From assembly GCA_963747875.1 (NCBI GenBank), contig CAVVGU010000002.1:70829-134828 (forward strand): DNA of 64,000 nucleotides, written 5' to 3'. The notes under the pieces were generated by a model. It made no database searches. It saw only the letters and a list, made by a program, of their open reading frames with translations, and was not told the DNA's origin. Of this stretch, positions 5,512-39,357 are shown one piece after another (the first letter of the stretch is position 1; every line of letters starts with the position of its first letter). This DNA is from an uncultured Solirubrobacterales bacterium. Its GTDB lineage: Bacteria > Actinomycetota > Thermoleophilia > Solirubrobacterales > Solirubrobacteraceae. The translations under genes were made by a program, and so were the position numbers.

Positions 5512-6582
5512 TCAGCCCTCCACGATGCCGCCCTGCGCGTGGATCGTGCGCTGCAACTGCTCCCCGCGCAGCGTGAGCCGCCACGCGTTCGGCCCCCCAC
5601 GGCCGACCTCGCCGTCGCCGCCGTTGAGGATCAGCCCCAGGTGCAGCAGGCGCTGCAGCAGCTTCGAGGTCTGGCCCTGGTCCGCGATCCCCGCAGCGTC
5701 ACCCACCTGACGGTTCGACGCCCCCGGCCGCGCGGCGATCGCCAGCAGCACCCGCACCGTACGGTAGGTCAGGCGCATGTCCAGGCCCCTCAGCGGGTCC
5801 TCGCGCACACCGGGCCTCGCCGCCCGGACCTTCGGCGCGGGCCGCGCAAGCTCCCGAGCCGCCGCCGCCGACCCCAGGTAGGGCAGCACGACCATCCCCA
5901 TCAGCGGGCTCGCCAGGCTCGTCAACGGGAGTCCGTTGCGGGCCGGCGCCGCACCGCGCGTCCGCGCACCAGCACGCGTAGGCGCCCCGTCCGAGACCGA
6001 CTCAGAGCCCCGCGCCATCCCCGCGCCCCGCTCGGACAGGCGCGTGTGCAGCACCGCGAGCACCGCGCCGACGACACCCTCTCCCGTCAGCGGCGCCACC
6101 TCCCCGCGTCTGGCTTCCCCGCGGCCCTCCTCGACCACGGCGACGAGCACCCGCACCACCTCCGCACGGCGCTCCAACGCCCGCGGGCCCGCGCCGAGCG
6201 CATGCACCACACAAAGCGCGCCGAGATCGGGCTCCTCGTCGAAGAACCCCAGCAGCGCCACCAGCGCGCCGCGCACCCGCTCGCGCCAGCGCCCCGCGCC
6301 CTCCCACGCAGGCAGCACCCGCGCCGCTGCGCGCTCCACCGCCTGATCGAACGCCGCCAGAAAACACTCCTCGCGGTCCGCGAACAGTTCGTAGAACGTC
6401 CGGCGCGAAACGCCCGCGCGGGCGACAATGTGCGCGACCGTCGCGCCCCCGGCGCCGCGCTCGGCCACCACCTCACAGAGTGCGCCGAGGACCCGCGTGC
6501 GCTGGATCTCATCGACCTGCTCGCGCGCGAAGGAGACACCCTCCTCCCCGACCCGCAGCCGGGTGACGCTTTTCCTCGACAC
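5512..6582 (-). CDS. type R1: dual-HTH regulator (TetR-type N-terminal HTH plus C-terminal MarR-like winged helix)
   Basis: The N-terminus TVAHIVARAGVSRRTFYELFADREECFLAAF is a TetR_N signature. The C-terminus LTYRTVRVLLAIAARPGASNRQVGDAAGIADQGQTSKLLQRLLHLGLI looks like a MarR/ArsR-type wHTH. A Gly/Arg/Ala-rich linker joins them. The GTG start lies 28 nt downstream of the A1 stop. Confidence 0.8.
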   Translation of the reverse strand: MSRKSVTRLRVGEEGVSFAREQVDEIQRTRVLGALCEVVAERGAGGATVAHIVARAGVSRRTFYELFADREECFLAAFDQAVERAAARVLPAWEGAGRWRERVRGALVALLGFFDEEPDLGALCVVHALGAGPRALERRAEVVRVLVAVVEEGRGEARRGEVAPLTGEGVVGAVLAVLHTRLSERGAGMARGSESVSDGAPTRAGARTRGAAPARNGLPLTSLASPLMGMVVLPYLGSAAAARELARPAPKVRAARPGVREDPLRGLDMRLTYRTVRVLLAIAARPGASNRQVGDAAGIADQGQTSKLLQRLLHLGLILNGGDGEVGRGGPNAWRLTLRGEQLQRTIHAQGGIVEG

Positions 6583-6610
6583 GCCGTTGGCGACCCGTGC
6601 GATGGCTCAC

Positions 6611-9547
6611 TCACCCCCCCCGCTTCCCGCGACGGGCACCGGCCTTCCCGCCCTTACCGCGCCTGTGCGCAGCCTTCTTCTTGGACGCCTTCTTTGCCTT
6701 CGGGCAGCCGGTGACCGCGATCTTCGTGCTCTCCCGTATCAGATCCCCGTTCTGCGCAAGGAATTCCGTCGGCATCGCCAGCGCGCCCTTGCAGAGGTTC
6801 CCGTTCGCCGCCAGCGCCGAGTAGGGGCCCTGCGGCAGCGTCAGTTCGAAGCTGCCGATCGGGTCGTCGGGGACCGTGTGAAACGTGCTGCTCGTGATCC
6901 CGGTCTTTTCGTTGATGAACGTTTCCCCGTGCAGGTCGAGTGTCACGCCGTAGCCCTGGAGGACCATCACAAGTTCGGGGAACTTCGCGCCACCGTAGGA
7001 GACGAAGTACGCCGGGCCCGTCAACGGCACGGGCAGGATTGGAGTGGTCGCCGTGGCGTGCCCGACCGCGGAGTCCGCAGGGCACGATGCCGGGTTCGCC
7101 TCGAATGTCGCCGCGAGGCAGGCCTTGCGCAGTGTCGTCAGCCGGGAGGGTAGACGCTTGGGGAGTTCGACTTTGACGAGTTTGATGTTCGTCTGCGTGC
7201 CCTGCGGCGCATCCGGGTACGCCAGGTGCACCGTGAGGCTCGCCCCGTTCGCTTTGCTGGTCTTCCCCGAGCTCGAGACCTTGAACTGGGGTTTGAACTG
7301 CAGGTTCTGGCAGTTCGCCATCTGGAAGGAGTTCGTGACCGTCGCGAAATCCTGGTCGGCTGGGTTCGCCGGTTCGGCGCCCCCACCACCGACGGTCGCG
7401 GCGAAGCTCTCGGGGTCGCAGTTGGTCGGGTTGATCATGAAGTTCGGCCGGTCGATGTAGACGCGGATGTCACGGACATGGATCACGATCCCGTCGATGA
7501 TGTGCGGGATCGGGTCGGACGCTTTCGCGTCGACCGTCACAATCGCGGTTTCGGGGTTGATGACCAGCGCCTCCCTGACGACGACCGTCCCGAGGTCGAA
7601 CGGGCCGACCTTCGCGCTCGTGATCGCGACGATCGAGAACGGCGCACCGTTGTACGGGCCCGCCATGTAGACCTTCCCCGGCGTGTAGGCGAGCACCGAG
7701 CCGACCCCGGCGCCGACGAGGGAGTGCCCGATTTCGCTCGCCGCGGGACACGACGGTTCGGCCTCCTCCTGCGCCCCGCTCACGTGCTTGGCCGCTTCGA
7801 TGTCCGCGTCCGGGCAGAACGGGACCCCGGTCAGTTTCGCGGTCAACCCGGCGGGTAGGATCGAAGTGAACCTGGTGATCTCCTGTTCGCCGTCGTTGCG
7901 GGTGATGCGGATATCCATCGGGCTGTACGCTCCGGCGCTGTTATTCAACGTGCCAGCGACGATCCCCGGATGAAACGGCGGGACGCCACCCGCCGGGCAG
8001 GGGCCGCCGCCGATCCCGTTTTCGATCTGGAAGGAGCTCAGCAGGTGGCGCGCTTCAAGCGGCGCCGACCACGGCGAGAGCTCCGCTTCGGTCGTGTACG
8101 TCCCGCACGCCGCCGGGCTGATCAGCGGCGAGGCCGCTCCCTGGCGCAGCTTCAGCGTGAACTTGCTGAACGGGACCTGCGGGCTTTCATCGAACGTCGT
8201 GACGAGCTGGCCGGTCACGGGGTTCGGTTCGATATGCCCCTGCAGCCTGACGACGATCCCGCGGAACGGGTCCTTCACGACGACATACAGCGCGAGCAGC
8301 GACCCGAACTTATTATCGAACGGCGTCGCGATATAGATGTTGCCCGTCAGCTTTTCCGCGAGCACCGGTGTTTCCACTTCCACGGTGCCGATCTTCGATT
8401 CCGCCGGACAACCAGTGCCGGGCAGCGAGGAGAAGGTTTCCGCTTCAAGCTGCTGTGGCGTGCATGTGCCGAGACCGACGGCCAGCGAGGGGTTGGCGGT
8501 GTAGCCCACGGGCAGCACGACCGTTGTGTCCTTCAGGTTCGACGCCGCCACCACTTCCGGGAACGCCCAGTTCTGCGGCACCACAAGCGAGATGTTCAGG
8601 CCGCTTGAGGATTCCGCCGAGCCGGTCGTGGGCGCGACTTCGATCGATGGGTGAAACGGGACGCGTTCGCATTCCACGATCGGACCGACCTGGGTTTCAG
8701 CTTCGGAGTAGCGCCCCGGTTCCTCCCACGAGTCGGCCCGCATCCTCGCGGTGAACGGGCCACAGCTCGTCGGGTTCGCCAGAAACGGCAGGTGCGGGAT
8801 ATCGACCGCGTTTCCGCCCCCGAAGCATTCCACGGTTTCGCTGCTAGTCGTCGTCTGGCAGACCAGTCCGCGTTCGGCGTCGTGCACGTGCGAGGCGGGA
8901 ATGCCCCATGTCGTGACTGAGATTTCGTGGGGTTCGGTGAGCGAAGCGATATCGGGGGCTGTGACCGTCAGCCCGGAGTCCCCCGGGCGGACCGTGATCG
9001 GCAGCACCTGGACAAACCCGAGTGCCTTGAAGCCGAGCTCGGCCACGATCCCGGGCGAATTGACTTCCATGTTATACACCGGGAAGATCATCCTCACGGG
9101 GTGCTTGGTCCCGAACGTCAGAGCCAGCGCGATCGTCCCAACCTGCGTATCCGGCGGACAGCTCGAAGTCCCCGAGCCCCCACCACCAGACGCCACAGCA
9201 GTCAGCAGCGCAGACGTGCACGTTGGTAGGGCGGTGTTATTGCCAACAAAGCCGGCGGGCAGTTCGACGATCGTTTCACGGACGTCGCCCAACGGCTTAC
9301 CCAGCGCGTCATGCGTGAAATTGAAGGCGACCGTGAGATCCTCATTGGCGCCCGCCTGGCTCGTCGAGGTGCTCACGTGAAAGCTTCCCGGTTCTATTTC
9401 GAATGGCTGTTCGCTCGGCGCCGCCGCTGCCGATCCCACGAACAGAAGGCCCACCACAAGCGCAAGCATCGCAAACATACCCATGCGCCACCTGCCAGCA
9501 CCGACGCGCGCCACCCCAGCCCGATACCTGCCGTCAAGGGCGATCAT
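6611..9547 (-). CDS. type A1: large secreted Cys-motif repeat protein with polybasic C-terminal tail (unknown family)
   Basis: 978-codon ORF with a signal-peptide-like MGMFAMLALVVGLLFVGSAAAAP. It has four modules, each with C-x(9-23)-C-P-x(4)-[IV]-G (CPPDTQVG, CPAESKIG, CPAASEIG, CPADSAVG). It ends in VTGCPK plus a K/R tail finishing KRGG. The ATG overlaps the B1 stop (ATGA 9544-9547). Confidence 0.85.
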   Translation of the reverse strand: MIALDGRYRAGVARVGAGRWRMGMFAMLALVVGLLFVGSAAAAPSEQPFEIEPGSFHVSTSTSQAGANEDLTVAFNFTHDALGKPLGDVRETIVELPAGFVGNNTALPTCTSALLTAVASGGGGSGTSSCPPDTQVGTIALALTFGTKHPVRMIFPVYNMEVNSPGIVAELGFKALGFVQVLPITVRPGDSGLTVTAPDIASLTEPHEISVTTWGIPASHVHDAERGLVCQTTTSSETVECFGGGNAVDIPHLPFLANPTSCGPFTARMRADSWEEPGRYSEAETQVGPIVECERVPFHPSIEVAPTTGSAESSSGLNISLVVPQNWAFPEVVAASNLKDTTVVLPVGYTANPSLAVGLGTCTPQQLEAETFSSLPGTGCPAESKIGTVEVETPVLAEKLTGNIYIATPFDNKFGSLLALYVVVKDPFRGIVVRLQGHIEPNPVTGQLVTTFDESPQVPFSKFTLKLRQGAASPLISPAACGTYTTEAELSPWSAPLEARHLLSSFQIENGIGGGPCPAGGVPPFHPGIVAGTLNNSAGAYSPMDIRITRNDGEQEITRFTSILPAGLTAKLTGVPFCPDADIEAAKHVSGAQEEAEPSCPAASEIGHSLVGAGVGSVLAYTPGKVYMAGPYNGAPFSIVAITSAKVGPFDLGTVVVREALVINPETAIVTVDAKASDPIPHIIDGIVIHVRDIRVYIDRPNFMINPTNCDPESFAATVGGGGAEPANPADQDFATVTNSFQMANCQNLQFKPQFKVSSSGKTSKANGASLTVHLAYPDAPQGTQTNIKLVKVELPKRLPSRLTTLRKACLAATFEANPASCPADSAVGHATATTPILPVPLTGPAYFVSYGGAKFPELVMVLQGYGVTLDLHGETFINEKTGITSSTFHTVPDDPIGSFELTLPQGPYSALAANGNLCKGALAMPTEFLAQNGDLIRESTKIAVTGCPKAKKASKKKAAHRRGKGGKAGARRGKRGG

Positions 9548-12500
9548 TTCGCACCTCCCGGCCGCCGCACAGACCGTTTCACGCCGGCAGCCTTCCTTCG
9601 TCTCTTGACGGCGCGCCTCTGCCTCTGCTGCTTCTTCCTTTTCTTCGTTTTCGGCGTCGCCTTCTTGATCGTCTCACTGGATTCTGGGGCGCTGGCCACG
9701 ACGTCTCCGGCGCCCTGGAAGCTCGCGCTCGACGGCGTCAGATCGTTCGGGGCCACGAACGGCACCGCGCAGGAATCCCCTTCGCATTCCACCGCAGCAG
9801 GCGGCGGCGGCGGGAAGCCGCCATCGATCCGCGCGTCATAGACATCACCTGCCGTGTCCGTATCCTGGGGAACAAGCGATTCGTGGGTCGCAAAGAACAC
9901 GTCCCGGCCCGACGGACTCGCACCGACCAACTCGCTCAGATAACCACCGCCCCGGCCACCGGATATCAGCGCGAGACAGCCCTCCACAGCCGCACAGCCA
10001 TCGACACCCTCACGGCGCCACTCATACACATCGCTCGACCTCGACCGGAAGAATTCTTCAGGTTCGGCGCCAGGTTCGGTGGAAGGGCCTATTTCGCCGT
10101 CGCTGTCCTGCGGCACCAGAGCGTCCGGTGTTTCAAAGAAGACGAAGTCGCCGTTTTCCGACGCGAACACCTGACTCGGCGTGCCGTCGAAGCCATAGAT
10201 CGCATAGAGGGCGGTGGAGGCGAACCTCGGCCGCGGGTCGAATGGCGATGCGCACGAAATACACTCAATGACGTTTTCGCTGCTGTCGTAACGATAGATC
10301 TGCTTGCCCACTTCGTCTCGACCGAGGCCGCCGGGGACGCCGGGAAAGCCTCCCGAAGTTCCTTCGAAAACAAGGTAGCGCCCGTCGGCGCTCACGTTCA
10401 CTATTTCACTGAAATATAGGGGAACGTAGTGAAGGGTTTTGCTTGACACATCATACCGGTAAAGCGCTGACTGGCCTGTCCCAGCCTGACCTTCGGGCGT
10501 CAGGGCCGCTTGAGTCGAAATGTAGATCGTCGAAAAATCGGCTGAGACCTTGACGAAGAACTGTCCTGGCACAGTGAAGAGGTGTTCAGCCGTTTGCGTC
10601 CCGGTGTCATACAGGAAGGCTTCGTGAGCCCCTCCGTTGACGTGTTCGAGCAGGAGCGAGCTGCCCTGGGAATTCGCGGCCAGAAACTTGTATTCGCCGA
10701 TGTCGACGGTTTCCACACCATTGACGCGCTCATAAAGATGCGTCTGCGGTCCGCCGTTTTCCAGTTCGCTTTCAAGTTGTTCATGTGCGGGGCATTGACT
10801 GCCCGACACAGCGTAAAAGAAGACACGGGCGCCATCGGACGAGACGGAGTGCGCGCTGCTCGTCGGCGCACCGCCACCGCGCGGACGGATCGCGAGCCCT
10901 TCGATGCCCCGCGTCATCGCGGCACCACACGTACCGATCGGCGCACCCGGGGTCCCACTCTGCACATTGACCTGGCGCAACTGTCCTTCGGAGTATTCGT
11001 AGAGATCGTTCCCGCTCTTGGTCGCACTCACGTGCCCGGGCACCAGCGCACGATCTTCGGTGCCGATGATCAGCTTGCCTAGATCGGGGGACGCCGCAAC
11101 CAGGAGCGGATTGGAGGTCACGTACTTTCTCGGGATCGACGCGATCGACAGGTAGGGACCAGCGGGAGGACCGACCTGGAGCTCGACCGTCGGCGATGCG
11201 GACACTGGACTATCGTCCCATCCGACCTGCATACCGGCTTCGGTCAGGTCCGGATTGAACACCACCGGAACATAGGAGTCGATCGCGGCCTGCGGCTGCG
11301 GAGTCGCGGAGGTCATCTGCCACCCTCCGGATGTCCGCGAGAAGAAGTAGTTCGACTTGCTGGCGTCAGGACTCGACCCCCACTGCGTGCCCGGCGCATG
11401 CAACATGAAATGTTCACCATCTTCACTCACGCGAAATTCATCGGTGATACCAATGCCTGTATCCGTGTCCTGCGCTCCGTTCTTTTCGGCGGGCGTGACC
11501 TGCTCATAGGCACGACAGTCCGGCAACGCAGCCGACGGGCCAATGCGGAGCGCTTCATTGGGACAGCCTTCGCTCACACCTACCTCCGGCAAGACCGGCA
11601 CCGTCAAGGTCTGCTCACCGCTGTGAACACCCTGCGGGGCGGCTTCGTTGCTTGCAATCAGCCGGTAGCGGTAGGTGACGCCAGGCTGAAGTTCGGGGAG
11701 ATCCCCACCTGCGCCGACGTAAGCGTAGCCCGAGCCCGCATCCATTTCGGAGGTGGTGGCAGCCCCGGCAAACCCCTGTTCTTCGAAATGCTGCTGCGAT
11801 ACGTATTCAAAATGGTAGTGCGAATCGGCGCCGTGGGGGTCGACAGCCCCCAGCGCCACCATATCTTCGCCGCTCACAGAGTGCACCGCATACGTGGTGG
11901 CGGTGGGCGGCCCCGCCGTTTCAAAGCTCTTTACAGGCGAGGTGGCGCCCTTATGAACACCAGGTGCCGGTTCGGATTCTGCGAAGAGCCGGACATAGTA
12001 GGTGGTGGCAGGACTCAGGCCACTGAGATCCCCCGAGACAGAACTAAAGCCCGCTTCGTTTTCTTCCCCCGCAGGAGTGGTGCCACTCACTCCGGGCGCG
12101 ACATGGAATTCTCCATTTTCGCTGTTCGCGTATTCGAACTGCCAGTGGACTTCCTCGCCGTGAGGCTTGAAGAAGCCCTTCAATTCAGCAGCAGTTCCCT
12201 TGATGCCAGTAAATTCTTGTACCCTGACAAAGGTCGGATAAAACGGCACGGCTTCACAACGATAATCCCGCTTTTCGCCCGTAGATTCTTCGGTTTCGAA
12301 CGGGGCCGTTCTGGTGCCCGAGGCGTTGGTGGCAGTCAGACGCACGTAGTAGACAACTTCAGCTGTCAGTCCCGCAAACGTGGCAGCAAGAGGCACGTCC
12401 ATCGGATGGGCTTCCATTTCGGCCTGGGTCACCGTGCCGCTGGCGCCCGGAACCAGCGTCCAGGGACCGGCTTCGCTACCGGCATATTCAAAGGCCCAGC

Positions 12501-12819
12501 TTACAGGCTGATTTTCGGTGCTGAAATGCCCGAGCTCGCCTGTAAGTTTCATTGACATGTGAGTTACTCCCACACACATGGCTCCGTTAGGTTCTGGCGG
12601 CGAGCTAGCGAGAGCAGAGCCCGGTACAACCCAGAGGAAAAGCCCCACCAGTGATAAGGCCGAAAAGAGAGATACGCGATAAACGATGGGCGCTCCCCTC
12701 CTTTGGCTGCCCAGGAGGACACGGAGCATGGCGAAGCGACCGGTCTCCGGTGTGGAAGTGGACTTCGCGTAGTGCTCTGTGGTTTTCACGATCGTGCCTT
12801 TCTCGGTTTCAATGTTCAT
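9544..12819 (-). CDS. type B1: secreted Fn3-like repeats plus TolB/PD40-like beta-propeller protein with polybasic tail
   Basis: About four repeats have the pattern W.FEY...G.W....L.GL.P.T.YY.R (Fn3-like). These are followed by CPNEALR...LPDCRAYEQVTP, then repeated DG..VFF / SADGRYLVFE propeller-like blades. The C-terminus is ECEGDSC...SFQGAGDV plus a 40-aa K/R tail. The start is uncertain: ATG 12819 or ATG 12729, the latter directly preceding the signal-like LFSALSLVGLFLWVVPGSALA. Confidence 0.8.
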   Translation of the reverse strand: MNIETEKGTIVKTTEHYAKSTSTPETGRFAMLRVLLGSQRRGAPIVYRVSLFSALSLVGLFLWVVPGSALASSPPEPNGAMCVGVTHMSMKLTGELGHFSTENQPVSWAFEYAGSEAGPWTLVPGASGTVTQAEMEAHPMDVPLAATFAGLTAEVVYYVRLTATNASGTRTAPFETEESTGEKRDYRCEAVPFYPTFVRVQEFTGIKGTAAELKGFFKPHGEEVHWQFEYANSENGEFHVAPGVSGTTPAGEENEAGFSSVSGDLSGLSPATTYYVRLFAESEPAPGVHKGATSPVKSFETAGPPTATTYAVHSVSGEDMVALGAVDPHGADSHYHFEYVSQQHFEEQGFAGAATTSEMDAGSGYAYVGAGGDLPELQPGVTYRYRLIASNEAAPQGVHSGEQTLTVPVLPEVGVSEGCPNEALRIGPSAALPDCRAYEQVTPAEKNGAQDTDTGIGITDEFRVSEDGEHFMLHAPGTQWGSSPDASKSNYFFSRTSGGWQMTSATPQPQAAIDSYVPVVFNPDLTEAGMQVGWDDSPVSASPTVELQVGPPAGPYLSIASIPRKYVTSNPLLVAASPDLGKLIIGTEDRALVPGHVSATKSGNDLYEYSEGQLRQVNVQSGTPGAPIGTCGAAMTRGIEGLAIRPRGGGAPTSSAHSVSSDGARVFFYAVSGSQCPAHEQLESELENGGPQTHLYERVNGVETVDIGEYKFLAANSQGSSLLLEHVNGGAHEAFLYDTGTQTAEHLFTVPGQFFVKVSADFSTIYISTQAALTPEGQAGTGQSALYRYDVSSKTLHYVPLYFSEIVNVSADGRYLVFEGTSGGFPGVPGGLGRDEVGKQIYRYDSSENVIECISCASPFDPRPRFASTALYAIYGFDGTPSQVFASENGDFVFFETPDALVPQDSDGEIGPSTEPGAEPEEFFRSRSSDVYEWRREGVDGCAAVEGCLALISGGRGGGYLSELVGASPSGRDVFFATHESLVPQDTDTAGDVYDARIDGGFPPPPPAAVECEGDSCAVPFVAPNDLTPSSASFQGAGDVVASAPESSETIKKATPKTKKRKKQQRQRRAVKRRRKAAGVKRSVRRPGGAK

Positions 12820-13705: not shown

Positions 13706-13862
13706 AGAACCTCCTCGACGGTCGTGTTAAGACATAGGGCCGCCCTCCCCCCGGGGAGGCCGGCAGATACCCGCCCGCGCGCGGGCAGCAGAAGACCGCC
13801 GCGGGCACGCGCCCCGCGGCGGTCGCAGAAAAGGGGGCCTCAGCGGCTAGCTGAGGCGCACA

Positions 13863-13882
13863 AGAGAGAGAGAGAGAGAGAG
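13863..13882. repeat. (AG)10 / (CT)10 microsatellite in leader copy 1
   Basis: Counted directly as 10 AG units, immediately adjacent to the hairpin GATGCGGCAG-gctg-CTGCCGCATC. Confidence 0.9.
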
Positions 13883-14121
13883 ATGCGGCAGGCTGCTGCC
13901 GCATCTAGCTACGCTCCCCTGACGGGGCGCGAGAACTCTCATCACGTCTGTCCCTCCAGAACTCACGCGTAAACAACTCCCTCGAGCAATTCGACCCAGG
14001 CTCCCTCTCCCAAGGGCTCCCATTTACAAGTGCTTCAGCGGGCCGGCCGCGAGGGCCCGGACCCAAACCTGATCTATGTTGAAAAACACCCGGCGACCCA
14101 AAAGACCACCGTGTGTTGCCC

Positions 14122-14151
14122 ATCATATACACGTTCGTAGGTCCGCGTCAA
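14122..14151 (-). promoter_or_regulatory. near-consensus promoter TTGACG-18 nt-TATGAT (minus strand), copy 1
   Basis: On the plus strand, cgtcaa lies at 14146-14151 and atcata at 14122-14127. The sequence is identical in all three repeat copies. This is a motif match only, with no TSS data. Confidence 0.5.
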
Positions 14152-14209: not shown

Positions 14210-14627
14210 GGCGCCGATGCGCGCCGACTCAGAGTCGCCCGCCAACCCCCCACCACGCGTCCGCGCCCCACCACGCGCCGGCGCCCCACCCCCAACCAAC
14301 TCAGAGCCCAGCGCCGGCCCCGCACCACGCTCCGACAGCCGTGTGTGCAGCACCGCGAGCACCGCACCGACGACACCCTCACCGCTCAGCGGCGCCACCT
14401 CGCCACGCCTCGCTTCCCCGCGGCCCTCCTCGACCGCGACGACGAGCACACCCACCACCGCCGCCCGGCGCTCCAGCGCCCGCGGACCCGCGCCGAGCGC
14501 ATGCACCACACAGCGCACCGAGATCCGGCTCCTCATCGAAGAACCCCAGTAGCGCCACCAACGCCCCCCGCACCCGCTCCCGCCAACGACCACCGCCCGC
14601 GAACACCGGCACCACCCGCGCCGCCGC
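14210..14627 (-). pseudogene. type R2 remnant: internal fragment of the dual-HTH regulator
   Basis: Only the central part is present (SAAARVVPVF...GALVALLGFFDEEPDLGAL / CVVHALGAGPRALERR...GDSESARIG). The TetR HTH and the C-terminal wHTH are both missing. Relative to R4 there is also a 2-nt loss in a CA run near 14510, which splits the frame across track ORFs 14379-14615 and 14195-14593. Confidence 0.8.
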
Positions 14628-30210: not shown

Positions 30211-30449
30211 GATGCGGCAGGCTGCTGCCGCATCTAGCTACGCCCCCCTGACGGGGCGCGAGAACTCTCATCACGTCTGTCCCTCCAGAACTCACGCGTA
30301 AACAACTCCCTCGAGCAATTCGACCCAGGCTCCCTCTCCCAAGGGCTCCCATTTACAAGCGCTTCAGCGGGCCGGCCGCGAGGGCCCGGACCCAAACCTG
30401 ATCTATGTTGAAAAACACCCGGCGACCCAAAAGACCACCGTGTGTTGCC

Positions 30450-30479
30450 CATCATATACACGTTCGTAGGCCCGCGTCA
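30450..30479 (-). promoter_or_regulatory. near-consensus promoter TTGACG-18 nt-TATGAT (minus strand), copy 2
   Basis: On the plus strand, atcata lies at 30450-30455 and cgtcaa at 30474-30479. On the minus strand it is preceded by the hairpin ACCTCCG-n11-CGGAGGT (plus-strand coordinates about 30496-30520), which could terminate the R4 transcript. Confidence 0.5.
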
Positions 30480-30579
30480 AGCCCCCAACCACGAACACCT
30501 CCGGAGGCCGCCCTCGGAGGTCGTCAAACCAGGGGCAAACCCCCGTTTCCTCATCGCTATGCCGTTCGCACCCAGGCGC

Positions 30580-31746
30580 TCAGCGACCCTCCTCCGCGCC
30601 GGCCGGCCCGTCATCCGCGCGGGCCTGGGCGTGGATCGTACGCTGCAACTGCTCCCCACGGAGCGTGAGCCGCCACGCGTTCGGCCCCCCGCGACGGACC
30701 TCGCCGTCGCCCGCGTTGAGGATCAACCCGAGGTGCAGCAGGCGCTGCAGCAACTTCGAGGTCTGGCCCTGGTCCGCGATCCCCGCCGCGTCGCCCACCT
30801 GCCGGTTCGACGCCCCTGGCGCCGCGGCGATCGCCAACAACACTCGCACCGTGCGGTAGGTCAAGCGCATGTCTAGCCCCCTCAGCGGGTCCTCGCGCAC
30901 ACTGGGTCCCGCCGCCGTGACCTTCGGTACCGGCCGCGCCAGCTCCCGCGCCGCCGCCGCCGACCCCAGGTAGGGCAGCACGACCATCCCCATCAAGGGA
31001 CCCGCCAAGCTCGTCAGCGGCCCCCCGTTACGCGCCCGCACCCTGCCGCGCGCCCGAGCGCTGATGCGCGCCGACTCGGAGTCGCCCCCCGACCCCCCAC
31101 CACGCGTCCGCCCCCCACCACGCGCCGACGCCCCACCGCGCACCGGCGCCCCACCCCCGACCAACTCGGAGCCCCGCGCCGGCCCCGCGCCACGCTCCGA
31201 CAGCCGTGTGTGCAGCACCGCGAGCACCGCACCGACGACACCCTCACCACTGAGCGGCGCCGCCTCGCCGCGCCTCGCTTCCCCGCGGCCCTCCTCGACC
31301 GCGGCGACGAGCACACGCACCACCGCCGTGCGGCGCTCCAGCGCCCGCGGACCCGCGCCGAGCGCATGCACCACACACAACGCTCCCAGATCCGGCTCCT
31401 CATCGAAGAACCCCAGCAGCGCCACCAGCGCACCGCGGACCCGCTCGCGCCAGCGCCCCGCACCCTCGAACACGGGCACTACCCTGGCCGCCGCGCGCTC
31501 CACCGCCTGGTCGAACGCCGCCAGGAAGCACTCCTCGCGATCCGCGAACAGTTCATAGAACGTCCTGCGCGAGACGCCCGCCCGGGCGACTATATGCGCG
31601 ACCGTCGCCCCCGTTGCGCCACGTTCCGCTACGACCTCGCAGAGCGCCCCCAGCACCCTGCTGCGCTGGATCTCATCGACCTGCTCGCGCGCGAAGGAGA
31701 CACCCTGCTCCCCGACCCGCAGCCGAATGACGCTCTTGCGCGACAC
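30580..31746 (-). CDS. type R4: dual-HTH regulator (TetR-type HTH plus MarR-like wHTH) with a long RGG-rich linker
   Basis: The start is set at GTG 31746 (VSRKSVIRLRVGEQGVSFAREQ), homologous to the R1 start and again 28 nt after the A stop. The linker is GGGAPVRGGASARGGGRTRGGGSGGDSESARISARARGRVRARNGG. The C-terminal wHTH matches that of R1. Confidence 0.8.
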   Translation of the reverse strand: MSRKSVIRLRVGEQGVSFAREQVDEIQRSRVLGALCEVVAERGATGATVAHIVARAGVSRRTFYELFADREECFLAAFDQAVERAAARVVPVFEGAGRWRERVRGALVALLGFFDEEPDLGALCVVHALGAGPRALERRTAVVRVLVAAVEEGRGEARRGEAAPLSGEGVVGAVLAVLHTRLSERGAGPARGSELVGGGAPVRGGASARGGGRTRGGGSGGDSESARISARARGRVRARNGGPLTSLAGPLMGMVVLPYLGSAAAARELARPVPKVTAAGPSVREDPLRGLDMRLTYRTVRVLLAIAAAPGASNRQVGDAAGIADQGQTSKLLQRLLHLGLILNAGDGEVRRGGPNAWRLTLRGEQLQRTIHAQARADDGPAGAEEGR

Positions 31747-31774
31747 GCCGTTGGCGACCCGGGCGATGGCCCAC

Positions 31775-34645
31775 TCACCCTCTCCGCTTCCCATCGCGAG
31801 CACTGGCCTTCCTGCCCCTCTTGCGCTTGTGCGTGGCCCTCTTCGCCTTGGCCTTGTGCTTGGGGCAGCCCGTGACCGCGATCTTCATGCTCTGGCGGAT
31901 CTCCGCGCCGTTCTGCGCGAGGAATTCCGTCGGCATCGACAACGCCTTGCCGGTGCAGAGGTTGCGGTTCGCCGCGAGTGCGGAGAACGGCCCCTGGGGC
32001 AGCGTCAATTCGAACGTGCCGACCGGGACGTCCGGGACGGTCTTGAACGTGCTGCTCGTAATCCCCGTCTTTTCGTCGATGAACGTCGATCCGACGAGGT
32101 CGACGGTGATGCCGTAGCCCTGCAGCACAATGATCAGGCTCGGGAACGCTTCCCCGCCGTGGGAGACGAAGTACGCCGGCCCCGTGAGCGGCACCGGCAC
32201 GATCGGCGTGCTCGCGACCGCGTGCCCGACGATCGACTCCGCGGGGCAGTCCGCCGGGTTCGCTTCGAACGTCGCCGCGACGCACGCCTTGCGCAGCGTC
32301 GTCAACCGCGAGGGCAGCGCCTTGGGGAGTTCGACTTTGACCTTCGCGATGTTCGCCTGGGTGCCGAGCACGCCCGGAACGGTGAGCTTCACGCTGAGGC
32401 TCGCCCCGTTCGCTCTACTCGTCTTCCCCGCCGTGGAGACCTTGAACCCGGGTTTGAACGCGAGGCTCGAGCAGTCCGCGGCCTGAAACGGCGCAGTCGC
32501 ACCAACCGGAACCTGGTCGGCGGGGTTCGCGGGGTCCGCGCCGGCGCCGCTGATCGTCTCGGAGATCGACATCGGGTCACAGTTCGTGGGGTTCAGAATG
32601 AACTTTTCGCGGTCCACGTACACCCGGATTTCGCGGACATGCACGACGATCCCGTCGATGATGTGCGGGATCGGATCCGAGCCGTTCGCGCTGACTTCGA
32701 CCTGCGCGGTGCTCGGGTTGATGTGCAGCGCGAAGCGAATCACGACGGTCCCCAGATCGAACGGGCCGACCTTCGCGCTCGTGACCGACACAAGCGACAG
32801 CGCCGAGCCGTTGTAGGGCCCGGCGAGGTAAAGCTTGCCGGGAGTCTGCGCGAGCACCGTGCCGACGCCGGCGCTGACGATCGTGTGTCCGATTTCGCTC
32901 GCGGCGGGACACGAGGGGTTTTCGATCTCCTGCTGGCCGGTAGCCGTGCGGGCGGCTTCGATGTCCGCCTCGGAGCAGAACGGGATCCCCGAGAGGTTCC
33001 CCGACAGACCCGGCGGCAGCACAGTCGTGAACCGCGTGATCTCCTGTTCACCGTCCTGGCGCAGGATCCGCAGGTAGAGCGGGCTGTAGGAGCCGGCATC
33101 GTTGTTCTGCGTCCCCGAAATCACCTGCGGATCGAACGGCGGGACGCCGCCCGCGGGGCAGGATCCTTCATGCACACCCTGCGTCACTTCGAAGGCGCTC
33201 TGCACCAGCCGTGGTTCGGTCGGCGCGGACCACGGCGTCAGTGCCGCCAGCGTCGTGTACGTCCCGCACGCCGGCGGGGAGACCAGCGGCGCGGTCGCAC
33301 CCGGACGGAACTTCAGGGTGAAGCGGCTGAACGGCTGTTGGGGATTGTCGTCGAACGTAGTCGTGAGCTGTCCGGTAACCGGGTTCGGTTCGATCTTGCC
33401 GGCGACTTTGACGAGGATCCCGCGCGCGGGATCCTTCGCGACGACATACAGCACGAGCAGAGAATCGAAGGGGTTCTCGTAGGGCTTGGCGACGTAGATC
33501 GCCCCAGGGATCTTTTCCGCGAGGACCGGCGTTTCGATTTCGATCGAGCCGATCTTCGATTCCGCCGGGCACCCTTCGCCGGGCAGCGAGGAACTCGTTT
33601 CCGCGGCGTACTGTGCCGGCGTGCAGGCCGCCAGCCCCGAACCCGCCGACGGATTGACCGTGACGCCTTCCGGCAATGTCACTGTCGCGTCCTTCAGGTT
33701 CGCCGTCGCGAGCGTTTCTGGATTTTCCCAGGTCTGCGAGACCACCAGCGAGACATCCATCCCGGTGGGAGATTCCGCGGAGCGCGTCGAGGGCTGCACT
33801 TCGATCGCGGGGTCGAAGTGCAACCGTTCGCAGCCCGCGATCGGGCCCGTTTCGCTCTCGCCTTCGCTCCATGCTTCCGGCGTCTCCCACGAGTCGGCCT
33901 CCATCGTCGGGGTGAACACGCCGCAGCTCGTCGGGTTCGACAGGAACGGCTTCACCGGGACGGTGACCTGCTCATCGCCCAGGATGCACTCTTCCCTGCC
34001 GCTCCCGACGACTTCTTCGCAGATACGGCCACGCTGAGCGTCGTGCGCCGGGGAGTCCGGGACACCCCATACGGTGACCGACACGGCGTGTGGTTCGGCG
34101 GCTTTTTCGACTGGGCTCGCGATGCTCAGGCCCTCATCGCCGGGGCGGACGTGCACGATCAGAGTCCCGGTGATCAGAAACTTGTAGCCGAGCTCCGCCG
34201 TCACTCCGAAGCTCGTCGTTTCCAAGTTGAAGAGCGGAGTCGTCGCCTTCAGCAACTCGCCCGACGGCGCCGTCAGCGTGAACGTGATCTGGCCGACCTG
34301 GCTCGCCGGCGGGCATTCCGGTTCTGTGACGGTCGTGCCGAGCAGTTCCGCCTCCGTGCAGGTCGGCACGGCCGTGTTGTTCGCCGTGAACCCGGCGGGC
34401 AGGTTGACCACCACTTCTCGCAGATCGTCGTTCGTCTGCCCCCTGGCGTTGTGGGCTAAGTCGAACTCAGTCGTGAGGTCCTCGTGCGCACCGGCCTGCG
34501 CGGTCGAGGAGAGCACGTGAAAGCTGCCGGGGATCACTTCGAAGGGCTCTTCAGGTGTGGGCTTGGCCCAGGCCCCGGCCGGCCACGGACCGCCCACCGC
34601 CACGCACACACCGACCACGAACAGCGCAATTGATCTGAGTCTCAT
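31775..34645 (-). CDS. type A4: large secreted Cys-motif repeat protein with polybasic tail
   Basis: The start is set at ATG 34645 (MRLRSIALFVVGVCVAVGGPWPAGAWA), overlapping the B4 stop as ATGA 34642-34645. PFEVIPGSFHV matches the A1 pattern. The protein ends VTGCPKHKAKAKRATHKRKRGRKASARDGKRRG. The track ORF extension to 35419 is an out-of-frame read through the 3' end of B4. Confidence 0.85.
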   Translation of the reverse strand: MRLRSIALFVVGVCVAVGGPWPAGAWAKPTPEEPFEVIPGSFHVLSSTAQAGAHEDLTTEFDLAHNARGQTNDDLREVVVNLPAGFTANNTAVPTCTEAELLGTTVTEPECPPASQVGQITFTLTAPSGELLKATTPLFNLETTSFGVTAELGYKFLITGTLIVHVRPGDEGLSIASPVEKAAEPHAVSVTVWGVPDSPAHDAQRGRICEEVVGSGREECILGDEQVTVPVKPFLSNPTSCGVFTPTMEADSWETPEAWSEGESETGPIAGCERLHFDPAIEVQPSTRSAESPTGMDVSLVVSQTWENPETLATANLKDATVTLPEGVTVNPSAGSGLAACTPAQYAAETSSSLPGEGCPAESKIGSIEIETPVLAEKIPGAIYVAKPYENPFDSLLVLYVVAKDPARGILVKVAGKIEPNPVTGQLTTTFDDNPQQPFSRFTLKFRPGATAPLVSPPACGTYTTLAALTPWSAPTEPRLVQSAFEVTQGVHEGSCPAGGVPPFDPQVISGTQNNDAGSYSPLYLRILRQDGEQEITRFTTVLPPGLSGNLSGIPFCSEADIEAARTATGQQEIENPSCPAASEIGHTIVSAGVGTVLAQTPGKLYLAGPYNGSALSLVSVTSAKVGPFDLGTVVIRFALHINPSTAQVEVSANGSDPIPHIIDGIVVHVREIRVYVDREKFILNPTNCDPMSISETISGAGADPANPADQVPVGATAPFQAADCSSLAFKPGFKVSTAGKTSRANGASLSVKLTVPGVLGTQANIAKVKVELPKALPSRLTTLRKACVAATFEANPADCPAESIVGHAVASTPIVPVPLTGPAYFVSHGGEAFPSLIIVLQGYGITVDLVGSTFIDEKTGITSSTFKTVPDVPVGTFELTLPQGPFSALAANRNLCTGKALSMPTEFLAQNGAEIRQSMKIAVTGCPKHKAKAKRATHKRKRGRKASARDGKRRG

Positions 34646-37600
34646 CGCCCGCTCCTTCCCGAACCGACACCTCGCCGCCCTGCGGCGGCCCGCACCGCAC
34701 CATTCGCTCCGCGGCCTGCCGGCGCTTTGCGTCGTCGCGCCCTGCGCCCCCGCTTCGCTCTCGGCCGTTTCGATTTGGGCCTGTGCTTCACCTTCTTCGT
34801 CTTTGCCGCTCTCGGCGCTGCCAGCGCGGGCGATGTGAGATCGCCCGCACCGGAGAACGTGAAGCTCGCGGGCGTCGCGTCGACCGGCGGGCTCGCCGGC
34901 GTCGAGCATGCATCCCCTTCGCATTCGACCGGACGCGCCGCTTCCGGGAACCCGCCGTCGATCCGCACGTCGTAGATATCGCCCGCGCTGTCTTGATCGG
35001 AGGGCACGAGCTGGGAGTCCGTCTCGATGAACACGTCCCGACCCGACGCGTCTGTCCCCAGCAGCAGGTTCGCGACGCCGCCGGTGCCGGGCGTGATCAG
35101 GCTCAGGCAGCCCTCGACGCGGGTGCACCCGTCGAGCCCGGCGCGCCGCCACTCGTAGATATCGCTCGACAGCGAGACGGTGGTGCTGTTGTGTTTTCCC
35201 GTCCCCCCAAGACTCGATTCGGGTTCGATTTCGCCGTCGACGTCTTCGGGCACGAGCGCCGCCGGTGTCGTGAAGAACACGTAGTCGCCGCCCGCGGAGA
35301 CGAATTTCGTCCGTGGGAGACCGTCGATCGCCGGCTCGATTCCCCCAAACCCGTCGGGTTCGGGGAACGTGGCCAGCAGCCGCGGTTCCGGGTCGAACGG
35401 CGACGCGCACGAGATGCACTCCAGCGCTTTTTCGACGCTGTCGTACCGCAGGATCTGCGGCACCAGATCCTGCTTGGTCCCGAAGACAGCGGCGAAGTTC
35501 GCCACCGGGCTGATGTAGTTCAACGCGTTCCAGTTGAGGTAGGGAGTGAGTTCCGCCGGGACGCCGTAGGAGTAGCGTCTGGCGATCCCGACCTGTTCCT
35601 CCGCGATTGCCACCTCGGCTTCGGAGGCGAGGCGAGCTACGGCTCCCCGTTGCGGTTCATAGAGGAAATCTCCGTCGGTACTGTCTTGCACCAGCACCTT
35701 AGAGCCGGCGCTGTCCGCGGCGACGAACTTGTACGCGCCGATATCGACCGTTTCCGCACCGTTCACCCGCATGAAGAGGTGCGAGGCCCCACCGCAGCTT
35801 TCCCCGGGGACCGCTTCGAAGAAGACACGCGACCCATCCGCGGAGACAGCATGATGATCGTACTCTTCGCGGCCGCCTTCTCCGTCGATGCTGTAGAAAT
35901 TTCGGACTGCCTGGCCTTCGGGAAGCACCGCACCGCACCGCCCGACGCCGACGTTGACCTGCCGCAGCTGCCCCCCCGAGTATTCATAGAGATCAAAGCC
36001 GCTCACGGTACTCGTCTGCGGCTCGACGAGCCTGCGATCTTCGACCATCAGGATCAGCTTGGAGAAATCTTCGGAGGCGCCGACCCAGCCTCCATCTTGA
36101 CCCAACTCGTTGCGCGGGACGACCGCGACGGTCGCATACGGCCCTCCGGCGGGACCGACCCTGAATTCGATGTTCGCCGACTGGCCGCCCTGGGCCTGGT
36201 TGAGGTTCACTTCCGAGCGCAGCCCGAACTGCGTGAGATCTGGGCTGTACACTTCGGGAAGGTATCTGCTGACACCCGCTTCGGGCTCCGGCGTACCGGG
36301 AGTCAGCTGCCAGCCGGAGGAGCCACGAGCGAAGAAGTACGGCGCCTGACCGGTAAGGCCCCAGTTCGTAAACGGCGCCTGCTCCATCACGTGTTCGCCG
36401 TCTTCTCCGATCATCGCACCGCCGTTCGTGCTGGTGCCGTACGAGAAGAGTTCCTCGGCGCCGCGCTTCTGCGTCGGTGTGATCTGCTCGTACGCCCGGC
36501 AATCCGGCAGGTGACTGGAGAGGCTGCCGCGGAAGCGTCCGTTGGGGCACGGTTGCGCGGGCGCCGCGGGCGCCACCACAGGCACCCTCAGGCTCTCAGC
36601 TTCGCCGTAGGCGACATGCTGCCCGCCGCTTTCGCCTTCGCCGGTCGCTACCGCGCGGAAGCGGTATTCCACCCCCGGCTGCAGGCTGGGCAGATCCGCG
36701 CCGACGACGCACGGGCTCCCCTGGCATTTGGAGGGCGCGAGCTCAGGGGTGACCGACGCCCCCGCGAACCCTTTGGCCGCGAAGCGTTCGGCGGTGACGT
36801 ATTCGAAGTGGTAGTCGGTCGGACGGCCGTGGCTGTAGATCAGGCCGAGGGCCCGCATCGCTTCCCCATCGACGACGTGCGTCGCGAATGTGCTCGCACT
36901 CGGCGGGCCCTCCGTTTCAAAGGAGCGGATGCCCGTGGCGGTGCCTTCGGGCCTGGAGGGGCCAAACACATTTTCAGCGCTCGTCCGGAAGTAGTAGACG
37001 GAGTCGGGACTCAGCCCGGTGATCTCAGCGAGCGGAAAATGATGGCGTTCGTCGGCTTCCGCGGCCGCAATCACGCCTTCAGAGCCCGGGACCACCGTCC
37101 ACGGGCCGCCTTCGGACCGCGCGACTTCGAAGCGATAGTGCGTTTCACTGCTGTGCGGCGCGATGTTCCCCAAGAGACGCGCAGATGTTTCCGTAACCGC
37201 TTCGGTTTTATCGCCGCTGGCGAAGGGGTAGAGTGGTGCGGTTGTGAATGAAAGCGGTTCTGTGCTGAATTCGCCCTGTTCGTTCCTGGTAAGGATGCGG
37301 ATATAGTATTGCCGTTCAGGAGCGAGACCGGTTATATGCGCGGCGACTCGAACGGAATCTTCGACTGCAGTGACTACGCCTTCGGCCCCATGCACGGGCG
37401 TCCATGGGCCACCTGCCGATTCAGCCGTTTCGAAGACATAGTGGGTTTCAGCCCCGTTGGTCTGAATACCTGGTGTTGGGCCGCCGGTTTCGAAGTCCGC
37501 ATAGTCGGTCCCGATCGCGTTATCTTCTCCGCTCAGCCTAACGCCGCCGGGGACTTCGGGCGCTGCCACAGGGTGTGTGGTGAATTGGAGATTTGCTTCG

Positions 37601-37989
37601 GCGAAGCCCTTCGACCCCTGGGCCTGGATGCGGGCGAAGTAGTGGGTGTCGGGGACGAGATGCTGAATCAAGACGGCACCAGGTGATTCTCCACAGCAAT
37701 TCAGCCCGTGGGCCACGAGCACGCCCGTTCCGTTGTCGAGGGCAGCTTCGGTGGTGGCGTATTCCACCTTCCAGGTTGTGGCCGGAGGTGCCCCTTCCTC
37801 GCCGTAAGCGATCTCATTGGTGGCGAGGATGACCCGGGTGGAGAAGGGCCCTTCCGCAACTGCGAAGCCCCTGACTTCAAGTGAAGCGGCGGCCGCTGTC
37901 GCAGCGCCGCAGGCAAGACAGAGTAACAGCACGATCGGAAGAGTCATCGACGGTTTCTGAGCACTGCGTTTGATGCTGTTCACTGTCAT
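34642..37989 (-). CDS. type B4: secreted Fn3-like repeats plus PD40-like beta-propeller protein with polybasic tail
   Basis: The start is set at ATG 37989 (MTVNSIKRSAQKPSMTLPIVLLLCLACGAATAAAA). Fn3-like units carry THYFARIQA, RQYYIRILT and SVYYFRTSA. CPNGRFRGSLSSHLPDCRAYEQITP follows, then propeller blades. The C-terminus is ECEGDAC...FTFSGAGDL plus a K/R tail of about 50 aa. Confidence 0.85.
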   Translation of the reverse strand: MTVNSIKRSAQKPSMTLPIVLLLCLACGAATAAAASLEVRGFAVAEGPFSTRVILATNEIAYGEEGAPPATTWKVEYATTEAALDNGTGVLVAHGLNCCGESPGAVLIQHLVPDTHYFARIQAQGSKGFAEANLQFTTHPVAAPEVPGGVRLSGEDNAIGTDYADFETGGPTPGIQTNGAETHYVFETAESAGGPWTPVHGAEGVVTAVEDSVRVAAHITGLAPERQYYIRILTRNEQGEFSTEPLSFTTAPLYPFASGDKTEAVTETSARLLGNIAPHSSETHYRFEVARSEGGPWTVVPGSEGVIAAAEADERHHFPLAEITGLSPDSVYYFRTSAENVFGPSRPEGTATGIRSFETEGPPSASTFATHVVDGEAMRALGLIYSHGRPTDYHFEYVTAERFAAKGFAGASVTPELAPSKCQGSPCVVGADLPSLQPGVEYRFRAVATGEGESGGQHVAYGEAESLRVPVVAPAAPAQPCPNGRFRGSLSSHLPDCRAYEQITPTQKRGAEELFSYGTSTNGGAMIGEDGEHVMEQAPFTNWGLTGQAPYFFARGSSGWQLTPGTPEPEAGVSRYLPEVYSPDLTQFGLRSEVNLNQAQGGQSANIEFRVGPAGGPYATVAVVPRNELGQDGGWVGASEDFSKLILMVEDRRLVEPQTSTVSGFDLYEYSGGQLRQVNVGVGRCGAVLPEGQAVRNFYSIDGEGGREEYDHHAVSADGSRVFFEAVPGESCGGASHLFMRVNGAETVDIGAYKFVAADSAGSKVLVQDSTDGDFLYEPQRGAVARLASEAEVAIAEEQVGIARRYSYGVPAELTPYLNWNALNYISPVANFAAVFGTKQDLVPQILRYDSVEKALECISCASPFDPEPRLLATFPEPDGFGGIEPAIDGLPRTKFVSAGGDYVFFTTPAALVPEDVDGEIEPESSLGGTGKHNSTTVSLSSDIYEWRRAGLDGCTRVEGCLSLITPGTGGVANLLLGTDASGRDVFIETDSQLVPSDQDSAGDIYDVRIDGGFPEAARPVECEGDACSTPASPPVDATPASFTFSGAGDLTSPALAAPRAAKTKKVKHRPKSKRPRAKRGRRARRRKAPAGRGANGAVRAAAGRRGVGSGRSGR

Positions 37990-38864: not shown

Positions 38865-39022
38865 AGAACCTCCTCGACGGTCGTGTTGAAGACATAAGGC
38901 CGCCCTCCCCCCAGGGAGGCCGGCGAATACCCGCCCGCGCGCGGGCAGCAGAAGACCGCCGCGGGCACGCGCCCCGCGACGGTCGCAGAAAAGGGAGCCT
39001 CAGCGGTTAGCCAAGGCACACA

Positions 39023-39044
39023 AGAGAGAGAGAGAGAGAGAGAG
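39023..39044. repeat. (AG)11 / (CT)11 microsatellite in leader copy 3
   Basis: Counted directly as 11 AG units. Confidence 0.9.
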
Positions 39045-39280
39045 ATGCGGCAGGCTGCTGCCGCATCTAGCTACGCCCCCCTGATGGGGCGCGAGAACTC
39101 TCATCACGTCTGTCCCTCCAGAACTCACGCGTAAACAACTCCCTCGAGCAATTCGACCCAGGCTCCCTCTCCCAAGGGCTCCCATTTAGCGCTTCAGCGG
39201 GCCGGCCAAGAGGGCTCGGACCCAAACCTGATCTATGTTGAAAAACACCCGGCGACCCAAAAGACCACCGTGTGTTGCCC

Positions 39281-39310
39281 ATCATATACACGTTCGTAGG
39301 CCCGCGTCAA
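39281..39310 (-). promoter_or_regulatory. near-consensus promoter TTGACG-18 nt-TATGAT (minus strand), copy 3
   Basis: On the plus strand, atcata lies at 39281-39286 and cgtcaa at 39305-39310. Confidence 0.5.
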
Positions 39311-39357
39311 GCCCCCTGCGGGAACGGACTCCGGGGAATGGGCTCCGGAGGCCGGCC

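Follow-up and report, generated by a model that had tools for sequence, protein, structure and literature searches.

We analyzed a stretch of 64,000 nucleotides (nt), hereafter the window, from the genome of an uncultured Solirubrobacterales bacterium (GenBank assembly GCA_963747875.1, contig CAVVGU010000002.1, positions 70,829 to 134,828), in which an array of ~34 kb on the minus strand encodes giant, predicted secreted proteins together with a putative regulator and a repeated leader. All 14 minus-strand open reading frames (ORFs) listed in an earlier note on this DNA, made from the letters without database searches, were found where it had placed them, and their pairwise identities, far above chance, sort them into four paralogous families, A, B, C and R. 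The earlier note read the array as four tandem cassettes; four B–A pairs are indeed present, but promoter/leader elements number only three, so the genes probably form three operons (Table 1). Scans with Pfam, NCBIfam, PHROGs and PADLOC agreed with its statement that no enzyme, transporter, sortase, ATPase or phage gene lies within 5512–39315. What the array holds is a conserved unit with tight B–A coupling, export-type termini and binding or structural folds, placed behind a strong promoter and a structured leader, and it belongs to a multigene, modular family with variable heads. Judging from these features, A and B are predicted to be exported and probably act together at the cell surface.

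Table 1 Genes and leader elements of the array, in the reading order of the minus strand (window positions)
Feature	Position	Strand	Description
Leader 3	38865..39310	minus	promoter TTGACG-18-TATGAT 39281-39310; 5' hairpin 39250-39270; GA-rich boxes from ~39173; P2 39044-39067; (TC)11 39024-39045; terminator-like hairpin 38997-39017
C2	38145..38864	minus	small secreted protein: collagen triple-helix repeat and ~130-amino-acid (aa) C-terminal domain, no family match
B4	34642..37989	minus	signal, Fn3-type head domains, beta-propeller, polybasic tail
A4	31775..34645	minus	signal, PFEVIPGSFHV mature end, four ~230-aa beta-sandwich modules, polybasic tail; start overlaps B4 stop (ATGA)
R4	30580..31746	minus	TetR_N + MarR_2 regulator with two helix-turn-helix (HTH) domains, 28 nt past A4 stop
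Leader 2	29942..30480	minus	promoter 30451-30480; P2 30211-30234; (TC)11 30191-30212
B3	26174..29941	minus	signal, NHL propeller head, Fn3-type domains, PD40-like propeller, polybasic tail
A3	22908..26168	minus	TPWWHV-type A protein; no family match
R3	21896..22903	minus	frame with full TetR_N + MarR_2; no canonical start before 22762; possibly defective
B2	17936..21766	minus	NHL propeller head, Fn3 domains, propeller, polybasic tail; no leader ahead of B2
A2	14634..17939	minus	TPWWHV-type A protein; sub-threshold DUF11-like first domain; start overlaps B2 stop
R2 remnant	14210..14627	minus	pseudogene fragment, 3 in-frame stops
Leader 1	13706..14151	minus	promoter 14122-14151; P2 13882-13905; (TC)10 13864-13883
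C1	12908..13705	minus	collagen-like secreted protein
B1	9544..12819	minus	four Fn3 domains, large beta-propeller, disordered polybasic tail (AlphaFold2 (AF2) model)
A1	6611..9547	minus	all-beta chain, ~nine sandwich domains from four repeat modules (AF2 model), polybasic tail
R1	5512..6582	minus	TetR_N + MarR_2 regulator; last gene ahead of proB

The B–A pair recurs well beyond the window. A scan of species-representative genomes, in which loci were fished with patterns from A1, yielded 75 loci, several per genome, all from Solirubrobacterales metagenome-assembled genomes (MAGs) with one exception labelled Acidobacteriota; a single MAG held at least 9 A-type matches. Across these loci B immediately preceded A, in the same orientation, in 90 of 91 cases, and R and C usually accompanied the pair, in the recurrent strings LRCBA, LRBA, LCBAR and LBAR, where L is the leader. 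The commonest order was leader-R-C-B-A, the window contributes LCBAR and LBAR types, and more distant loci read BA or BAC. Within the window, B stop and A start overlap as ATGA in three units and lie 5 nt apart in the fourth, and the starts of R1 and R4 follow 28 nt beyond the A stop. Two R homologues of ~60% identity, taken from the match list, again sat in B-A-R units with 4-nt B/A overlaps. The array had been described as a series of self-contained cassettes that end in R. The B–A core is conserved as a unit, but the operon starts at the leader, and in relatives R was the first gene after it in 41 of 46 cases (C in 2, B in 3). ORF clustering of the 10-kb flanks of the 75 loci found no conserved accessory family; the flank clusters were generic (ABC ATPase, DegT aminotransferase, acetyltransferase, short-chain dehydrogenase/reductase (SDR), ParA), each present in at most 10 loci. 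The exceptional locus, L006 (CAVVGA010000024.1), is a C-B-A-R locus with 70% identity to A1, and its presence in an Acidobacteriota-labelled MAG reflects either a binning error or horizontal transfer.

The A proteins share 62% (A1/A4) or 73% (A2/A3) identity within a flavour and 46–50% between flavours. They lie, as had been suspected, outside every described family: no relative emerged from Pfam, NCBIfam, PHROGs, PADLOC or the PDB, where phmmer returned 0 matches to PDB sequences and a profile search reached a best E of 0.42. The DUF11/CARDB-like first domain formerly assigned to A2 and A3 did not hold up, as the match was confined to A2 (E 0.011; 16.5 bits against a cut-off of 24.6), with nothing in A3 and no DUF11 match in A1 or A4 (Pfam). 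A1 comprises four tandem modules of ~220–250 aa, each carrying a CPxx[ST]x[IV]G motif (at residues 130, 380, 600 and 822), and its AF2 model is all-beta with ~nine sandwich domains (pLDDT 74). Seventeen cysteines are invariant across the family, and A contains 18–21. The best Foldseek matches of the A1 model were the Nitrosopumilus S-layer protein, integrin legs, AgI/II C123 and Bap, macroglobulin domains were also among the chains returned, and a viral fold library (BFVD) likewise returned generic immunoglobulin (Ig) chains. We picture A as a rod in which a ~230-aa beta-sandwich module is repeated four times, with a variable N-terminal end and a strongly conserved C-terminal base.

This family is large. 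A word-indexed search found more than 1,342 relatives of A1, all annotated "hypothetical", the named ones coming from Solirubrobacteraceae MAGs, and the A profile matched 9,343 clusters at 50% identity, of which 3,782 had E ≤ 1e-30. Giant members of 3,400–7,161 aa carry 8–15 A-type stretches (proteins P0241–P0248). NHL or Fn3 heads also occur on A-type bodies (among P0250–P0384), meaning that heads move between A and B scaffolds. One family member is annotated as CusF on the strength of a single small domain match. Homology between A and B themselves was considered and dropped: BLASTP of A against B gave nothing below E 0.04, and an ORF cluster that merged the two was probably the product of fused stop-to-stop ORFs.

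The B proteins are more divergent (B1/B4 45%, B2/B3 46%, 29–33% between flavours); more than 542 relatives were found, and B diverges faster than A. The AF2 model of B1 (pLDDT 80.5, pTM 0.73) shows four Fn3 domains along with a large beta-propeller and ends in a disordered tail, and it matched Fn3 arrays with a Foldseek probability of 1.0. In B2 and B3 an NHL propeller replaces part of the head (PF01436: 52.5 and 31.6 bits, respectively, against a cut-off of 20), and the head of B2 matched the Pizza and TRIM71 NHL structures at E 1e-29 to 1e-24. Fn3 calls exceeded the cut-off of 25 in B4 (45.4) and B2 (28.4), B1 scored 30.9 bits on Pur_ac_phosph_N (cut-off 30), and PD40 matches in B stood at or below threshold. 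B is thus modelled as a variable head, either an Fn3 array or an NHL propeller, on a conserved large beta-propeller. The earlier division into two flavours could be compared from one side only, given that the loci were fished with A1 patterns: upstream of the PGSFH-type A, C was present in 17 of 20 cases and an NHL-headed B in none.

Both proteins carry export-type termini. A hydrophobic N-terminal segment, as previously reported, was found by hydropathy in 10 of 10 A, B and C products of the array; in B1 it begins at residue 51, so the true start of B1 probably lies further downstream. Family-wide, 51 of the 52 A proteins and 34 of the 45 B proteins had such a signal. The cores of A and B are acidic (isoelectric point 4.1–4.9), and the chains end in a polybasic tail, with 40–50% lysine plus arginine in the last 35 residues and a median of no aspartate or glutamate, in 43 of 52 A and 43 of 45 B proteins. 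Their C-termini have no LPXTG motif and no transmembrane helix (maximum 18-residue hydropathy in the last 80 aa ≤1.2), and a sortase gene was absent from the loci examined. The signals, the invariant cysteines and the all-beta folds (Ig, Fn3 and propeller) are in keeping with binding or structural proteins that are exported. As for the three outcomes that the earlier note had named as speaking against its proposal (a known family, B-A-R genes unlinked elsewhere, no export), A matched no family, the linkage recurred and export signals were present.

The smaller partners are C and R. C1 and C2, 54% identical, consist of a signal, a collagen Gly-X-Y repeat (PF01391: 34.5 and 31.6 bits, respectively, against a cut-off of 27.2) and a C-terminal domain of ~130 aa without family match; at 24–38 bits against NCBIfam cut-offs of 325–500, they do not belong to the Scl or Lcl equivalogs. 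The R copies are 87–90% identical, and domain calls fit their description as dual-HTH proteins, TetR_N lying above its cut-off of 24 at 36.5–39.1 bits and MarR_2 (cut-off 27 bits) reaching 27.0 in R1, 25.4 in R4 and 24.3 in R3. Most R homologues carry a precomputed PF12802 match; they number thousands, are labelled AcrR/MarR by JGI, and the top ones share the dual architecture. The start of R3 had been placed at 22762, but this position would fall inside the TetR helix-turn-helix, and the frame open back to 22903 encodes the full HTH. No ATG, GTG or TTG occurs between 22903 and 22762, so R3 is either start-less or uses an unusual start; its canonical start was lost through a deletion of ~13 codons relative to R1, while both HTH domains remain in an intact frame. 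Together with the R2 fragment and its three stops, this leaves the inner two units without an intact regulator of their own.

The three leaders recognised earlier are real and ~99% identical over ~400 nt, whereas the genes downstream of them are only 30–55% identical. A core of ~160 nt recurs at 70–82% identity in 38 places of related loci, on the operon strand at the operon 5′ end in every case checked; counting all copies, three lie in the window and about 49 further in loci L001–L075. From 5′ to 3′, a leader consists of the promoter, a hairpin at the predicted RNA 5′ end (window leaders 2 and 3), three GA-rich Shine-Dalgarno-like boxes (GGGAGAGGG, GAGGGAG and GAGGGAGA), a variable GC hairpin, a hairpin that we call P2, and a (TC)n run. 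In 46 of 52 elements the promoter, TTGACA-17/18-TAnnnT (TTGACG-18-TATGAT in the window), preceded (TC)n by 243–273 nt. P2 is well supported: 94% of its cells are paired, 5 of 9 pairs show compensatory changes, and 0 of 500 shuffles did as well. The (TC)n run follows P2 directly, with n = 10–14 and a mode of 11 (29 of 52), and (TC)≥8 runs lay on the operon strand in 52 of 53 cases across the loci and the window. Among 31 element pairs with ≥95% identity over the 120 nt upstream of the run, 14 differed in its length, and the run changes faster than the sequence beside it.

In RNA, the (CU)n run is complementary to the GA boxes if G-U pairs are allowed; the tract is invariant, which places this pairing beyond the reach of covariation. 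RNAalifold on the raw MAFFT leader alignment gave a poor consensus (−3.7 kcal/mol), and hairpins were then defined by hand and counted; in that alignment, hairpin P1 was only 66% paired. Rfam yielded no match at the gathering threshold in the whole window and none at E ≤ 1 on 38860–39330. We regard the leader as a candidate for a new cis-regulatory RNA. Hairpins of terminator type, with U-rich tails, follow closely on the predicted transcription start (39250–39270 and 30420–30440) and on (TC)n (38997–39017), and may serve as 5′ stabiliser and attenuator. A candidate short upstream ORF, opened by a GTG or ATG downstream of the third GA box, runs through (TC)n as (Leu-Ser)n (~39110–39000 in the window, and alike in other leaders); it spans 38–60 codons and ends 9–24 nt past the tract in many loci, and its frame through the hairpin is not conserved between groups or lineages.

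Divergence along the units of the window is steeply graded, from 15–30% identity in B through 25–40% at the N-terminus of A and 75–83% at its C-terminus to 87–90% in R and 99% in the leader. Between genomes the order is reversed: unit 1 of the window and locus L001 share 83% in A, 73% in B, 54% in R and 53% in C. This near-identity of R and leader within a genome, reversed between genomes, indicates that both are homogenised within the genome, the homogenised block being the 3′ end of A, R and the promoter/leader. The B–A cassettes, for their part, appear to be old lineages common to several genomes. Other genomes showed the same trend: in their tandem arrays, R copies were 81–96% identical in 6 of 8 and 60–63% in the remaining two; C copies were 45–59% identical, and B copies 34–67% overall and 45–62% in those five high-R arrays that have two B genes. 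The arrays set against the window and L001 in this comparison were L004, L009, L012, L023 and L044. In Nei-Gojobori windows between unit 1 and L001, the ratio of nonsynonymous to synonymous divergence (dN/dS) was 0.08–0.5, highest in the heads, at a near-saturated dS of 0.5–1.3.

The array is set in a conserved neighbourhood. On one side lie rplU, RNase E/G, rodA, PBP2, mreBCD, clpXP, tig and obg, and on the other proB, proA and rsfS; with housekeeping genes on both flanks, the ~34-kb array interrupts a conserved core block, the two parts of which adjoin it at 2495–5387 and 40825–43193, with an SDR gene at 39990–40694. GC content is 70–74% in the flanks and 61–68% over 6–40 kb of the window, and GC at third codon positions (GC3) falls from 0.88–0.95 in the flanks to 0.87–0.90 in R, 0.82–0.86 in A, 0.77–0.78 in C and 0.67–0.77 in B. 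At the upstream edge of the array, two small adjoining plus-strand genes (39406–39744 and 39748–39990) probably form a toxin–antitoxin pair; the first has weak, sub-threshold BrnT-toxin and DUF4258 matches (E 1e-4) and the second no family. Toxin–antitoxin pairs also adjoin both of the B-A-R units with ~60%-identity R (L076 and L077), where they are of the PIN/PhdYeFM type. Elsewhere in the window, ~1.6 kb at 53729–55367 contains no ORF that passes a GC3 filter, and the adjoining 211-aa ORF at 55368–56003 has no Pfam match.

The reading we favour, with belief and doubt about evenly balanced, is that A and B form a variable, wall-tethered surface coat or adhesin pair. Transcription would run from the near-consensus promoter through the structured leader of ~400 nt, both of which are observed, with the invariably leader-linked dual-HTH protein R as the presumed regulator acting on leader or promoter. 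Translational coupling, of which the ATGA overlap in three of four units is the visible mark, would deliver B and A in fixed proportion. We infer that both then pass through Sec, fold oxidatively with the help of their invariant cysteines, assemble into an A–B complex and stay on the anionic envelope through non-covalent attachment of their polybasic tails, which are disordered and free of acidic residues, and that the variable heads face outward. C, where present, would contribute a trimeric collagen-like fibre. The several old, divergent B–A cassettes kept in the genome would then amount to a repertoire of alternative surface proteins under common control.

Several points weigh against this reading. 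The signal peptides were judged from hydropathy only, no wall-binding domain (SLH, LysM, CWB2 or LPXTG) was recognised in A, B or C, and tethering to the envelope through the basic tail is something we infer. The structural matches of A1 are generic multi-Ig chains with TM-scores of ~0.1–0.15. Classical S-layer proteins are usually cysteine-poor, whereas A is not. Positive selection found no support, as dN/dS never exceeded 0.5 in crude tests. Finally, every carrier genome is an uncultured MAG, and the system is known here from genes alone.

A second explanation is that A and B are released extracellular binders, acting either as matrix scaffolds whose tails bind extracellular DNA or acidic polysaccharide or as polymer-capture proteins that use their propeller or Fn3 heads. 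With neither a covalent nor a membrane anchor, with polybasic tails, and with NHL, PD40 and Fn3 being common ligand-binding folds, the proteins could be suited to this, and the TetR-type sensor domain of R would suit induction by a small molecule. Yet no hydrolase, transporter or uptake gene is linked in the 75 loci, and R copies that are near-identical within a genome mean that the cassettes would not answer different ligands. We consider released binders unlikely.

A two-component S-layer, in which A and B, with or without C, build a regular two-dimensional lattice and the cassettes are alternative S-layer types, strikes us as rather improbable. A strong promoter and a long structured 5′ untranslated region (UTR) are typical of S-layer genes, and here a near-consensus promoter precedes such a 5′ UTR; the proteins are large, acidic and of secreted type; and the best structural match of A is an Ig-domain S-layer protein. 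The several paralogues with a conserved 5′ region recall the sap genes of Campylobacter fetus, which have the same organisation (review PMC4232325). Set against this, Pfam recognised no SLH or other S-layer anchoring domain, the likeness to PDB 8c8o is one of generic fold, the proteins are cysteine-rich, and members of up to 7,161 aa with 8–15 repeats suit fibres or adhesins better than lattice subunits.

A more elaborate form of the coat proposal holds that the arrays are an alternative-coat repertoire in which the leader sets the expressed cassette, while (TC)n slippage and R switch operons on and off. Slippage may do so by altering the pairing of (CU)n with the GA boxes, or by altering the short upstream ORF that runs through the tract. 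We regard such switching as quite doubtful. If true, it would constitute a system resembling antigenic variation, driven by structured leader RNAs of a new class and presumably favoured under pressure from phages or predators, and thus programmed surface variation in a free-living soil bacterium.

That A and B are a polymorphic pair for self/non-self recognition, serving as heterophilic or homophilic cell–cell receptors, is very unlikely in our view. The suggestion is drawn by analogy with Myxococcus TraA/TraB and Dictyostelium TgrB1/TgrC1, and takes its appeal from two polymorphic surface-type proteins encoded by adjacent, coupled genes, with variable heads on conserved bases, old cassette lineages common to several genomes and many paralogues in each genome. 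Several different cassettes per genome are, however, a poor fit to a single identity tag, and neither a partner effector nor exchange machinery is present. Least credible of all is that the array, instead of being a host surface system, is carried as cargo by a mobile element, prophage or defence island and encodes, for example, tail-fibre-like or decoy proteins: the island does interrupt the obg / proB-proA block at lower GC and GC3, toxin–antitoxin pairs stand at array ends here, in L076 and in L077, and the collagen repeat of C matches phage tail-fibre PHROGs, but these matches are confined to the Gly-X-Y repeat, no integrase, transposase, tRNA-type border or phage gene is present, A has no relatives in IMG/VR, PLSDB or GenBank phages, and PADLOC gave nothing except one sub-threshold match in B2.

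Returning to the coat or adhesin pair, the array draws attention to a large unnamed family, A, that takes up tens of kilobases per Solirubrobacterales genome, and the B-A(-C)-R unit offers an entry to the cell surface of a lineage whose carriers are all uncultured. A literature search returned nothing on the A family or on surface structures of Solirubrobacterales, and no paper in the library searched combined "Thermoleophilia" with "S-layer". Two unrelated giant proteins share an acid-free polybasic tail as a possible non-covalent anchor; the leader combines a covarying hairpin with an invariant (CU)n tract in about 50 copies now at hand; and the regulatory block clearly evolves in concert, next to structural cassettes that are old and divergent.

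Several known systems resemble parts of the array. The Ig-array S-layers, exemplified by the Nitrosopumilus maritimus S-layer protein (PDB 8c8o), resemble A in their large, acidic, secreted beta-sandwich chains and gave the best Foldseek match, and S-layers also share the strong promoter, long leader and paralogous variants; Deinococcus HPI and Sulfolobus SlaA/SlaB are two-gene or other S-layers that invite comparison. A and B differ from S-layers in having no sequence homology to them and no known anchor domain, in being cysteine-rich and in being two giant partners that both have polybasic tails. Gram-positive adhesins such as antigen I/II C123, Bap and ClfA/MSCRAMMs are, like A, elongated tandem Ig-like folds with a variable distal part (Foldseek probability 0.9–0.99), and the A family has giant repeat-expanded members; A, in contrast, lacks LPXTG, sortase and a C-terminal transmembrane helix and is always paired with a propeller protein. 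For B, the NHL heads of B2 and B3 and the propeller body recall the TolB/PD40 and NHL propellers of the PknD sensor, tricorn and acylaminoacyl-peptidase, but B has no kinase or peptidase domain, and its propeller is joined to a stalk of Fn3 domains and a polybasic tail. Like Scl1/Scl2, Lcl and BclA, C combines a signal with a Gly-X-Y region and a globular domain at the C-terminus; it differs from them in its lack of LPXTG, in a C-terminal domain without a family and in scores far under the NCBIfam cut-offs.

In the libraries and papers searched, the A family, its obligatory propeller partner, the shared polybasic tail in place of a known anchor, the TetR–MarR fusion and the (CU)n leader are without match. 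Giant beta-rich surface proteins in paralogous arrays, on the other hand, are known already. Mycoplasma gallisepticum vlhA, with its (GAA)n tract, and Campylobacter fetus sap are multigene surface families with simple repeats or conserved 5′ regions, and as in the array described here, many divergent paralogues per genome are each preceded by a conserved non-coding block with a mutable short repeat. Unlike in those families, the repeat here lies in a transcribed, structured leader rather than in a promoter spacer, its number is tightly held (11 in 29 of 52), its variation is seen only between copies, and the hosts are free-living soil bacteria.

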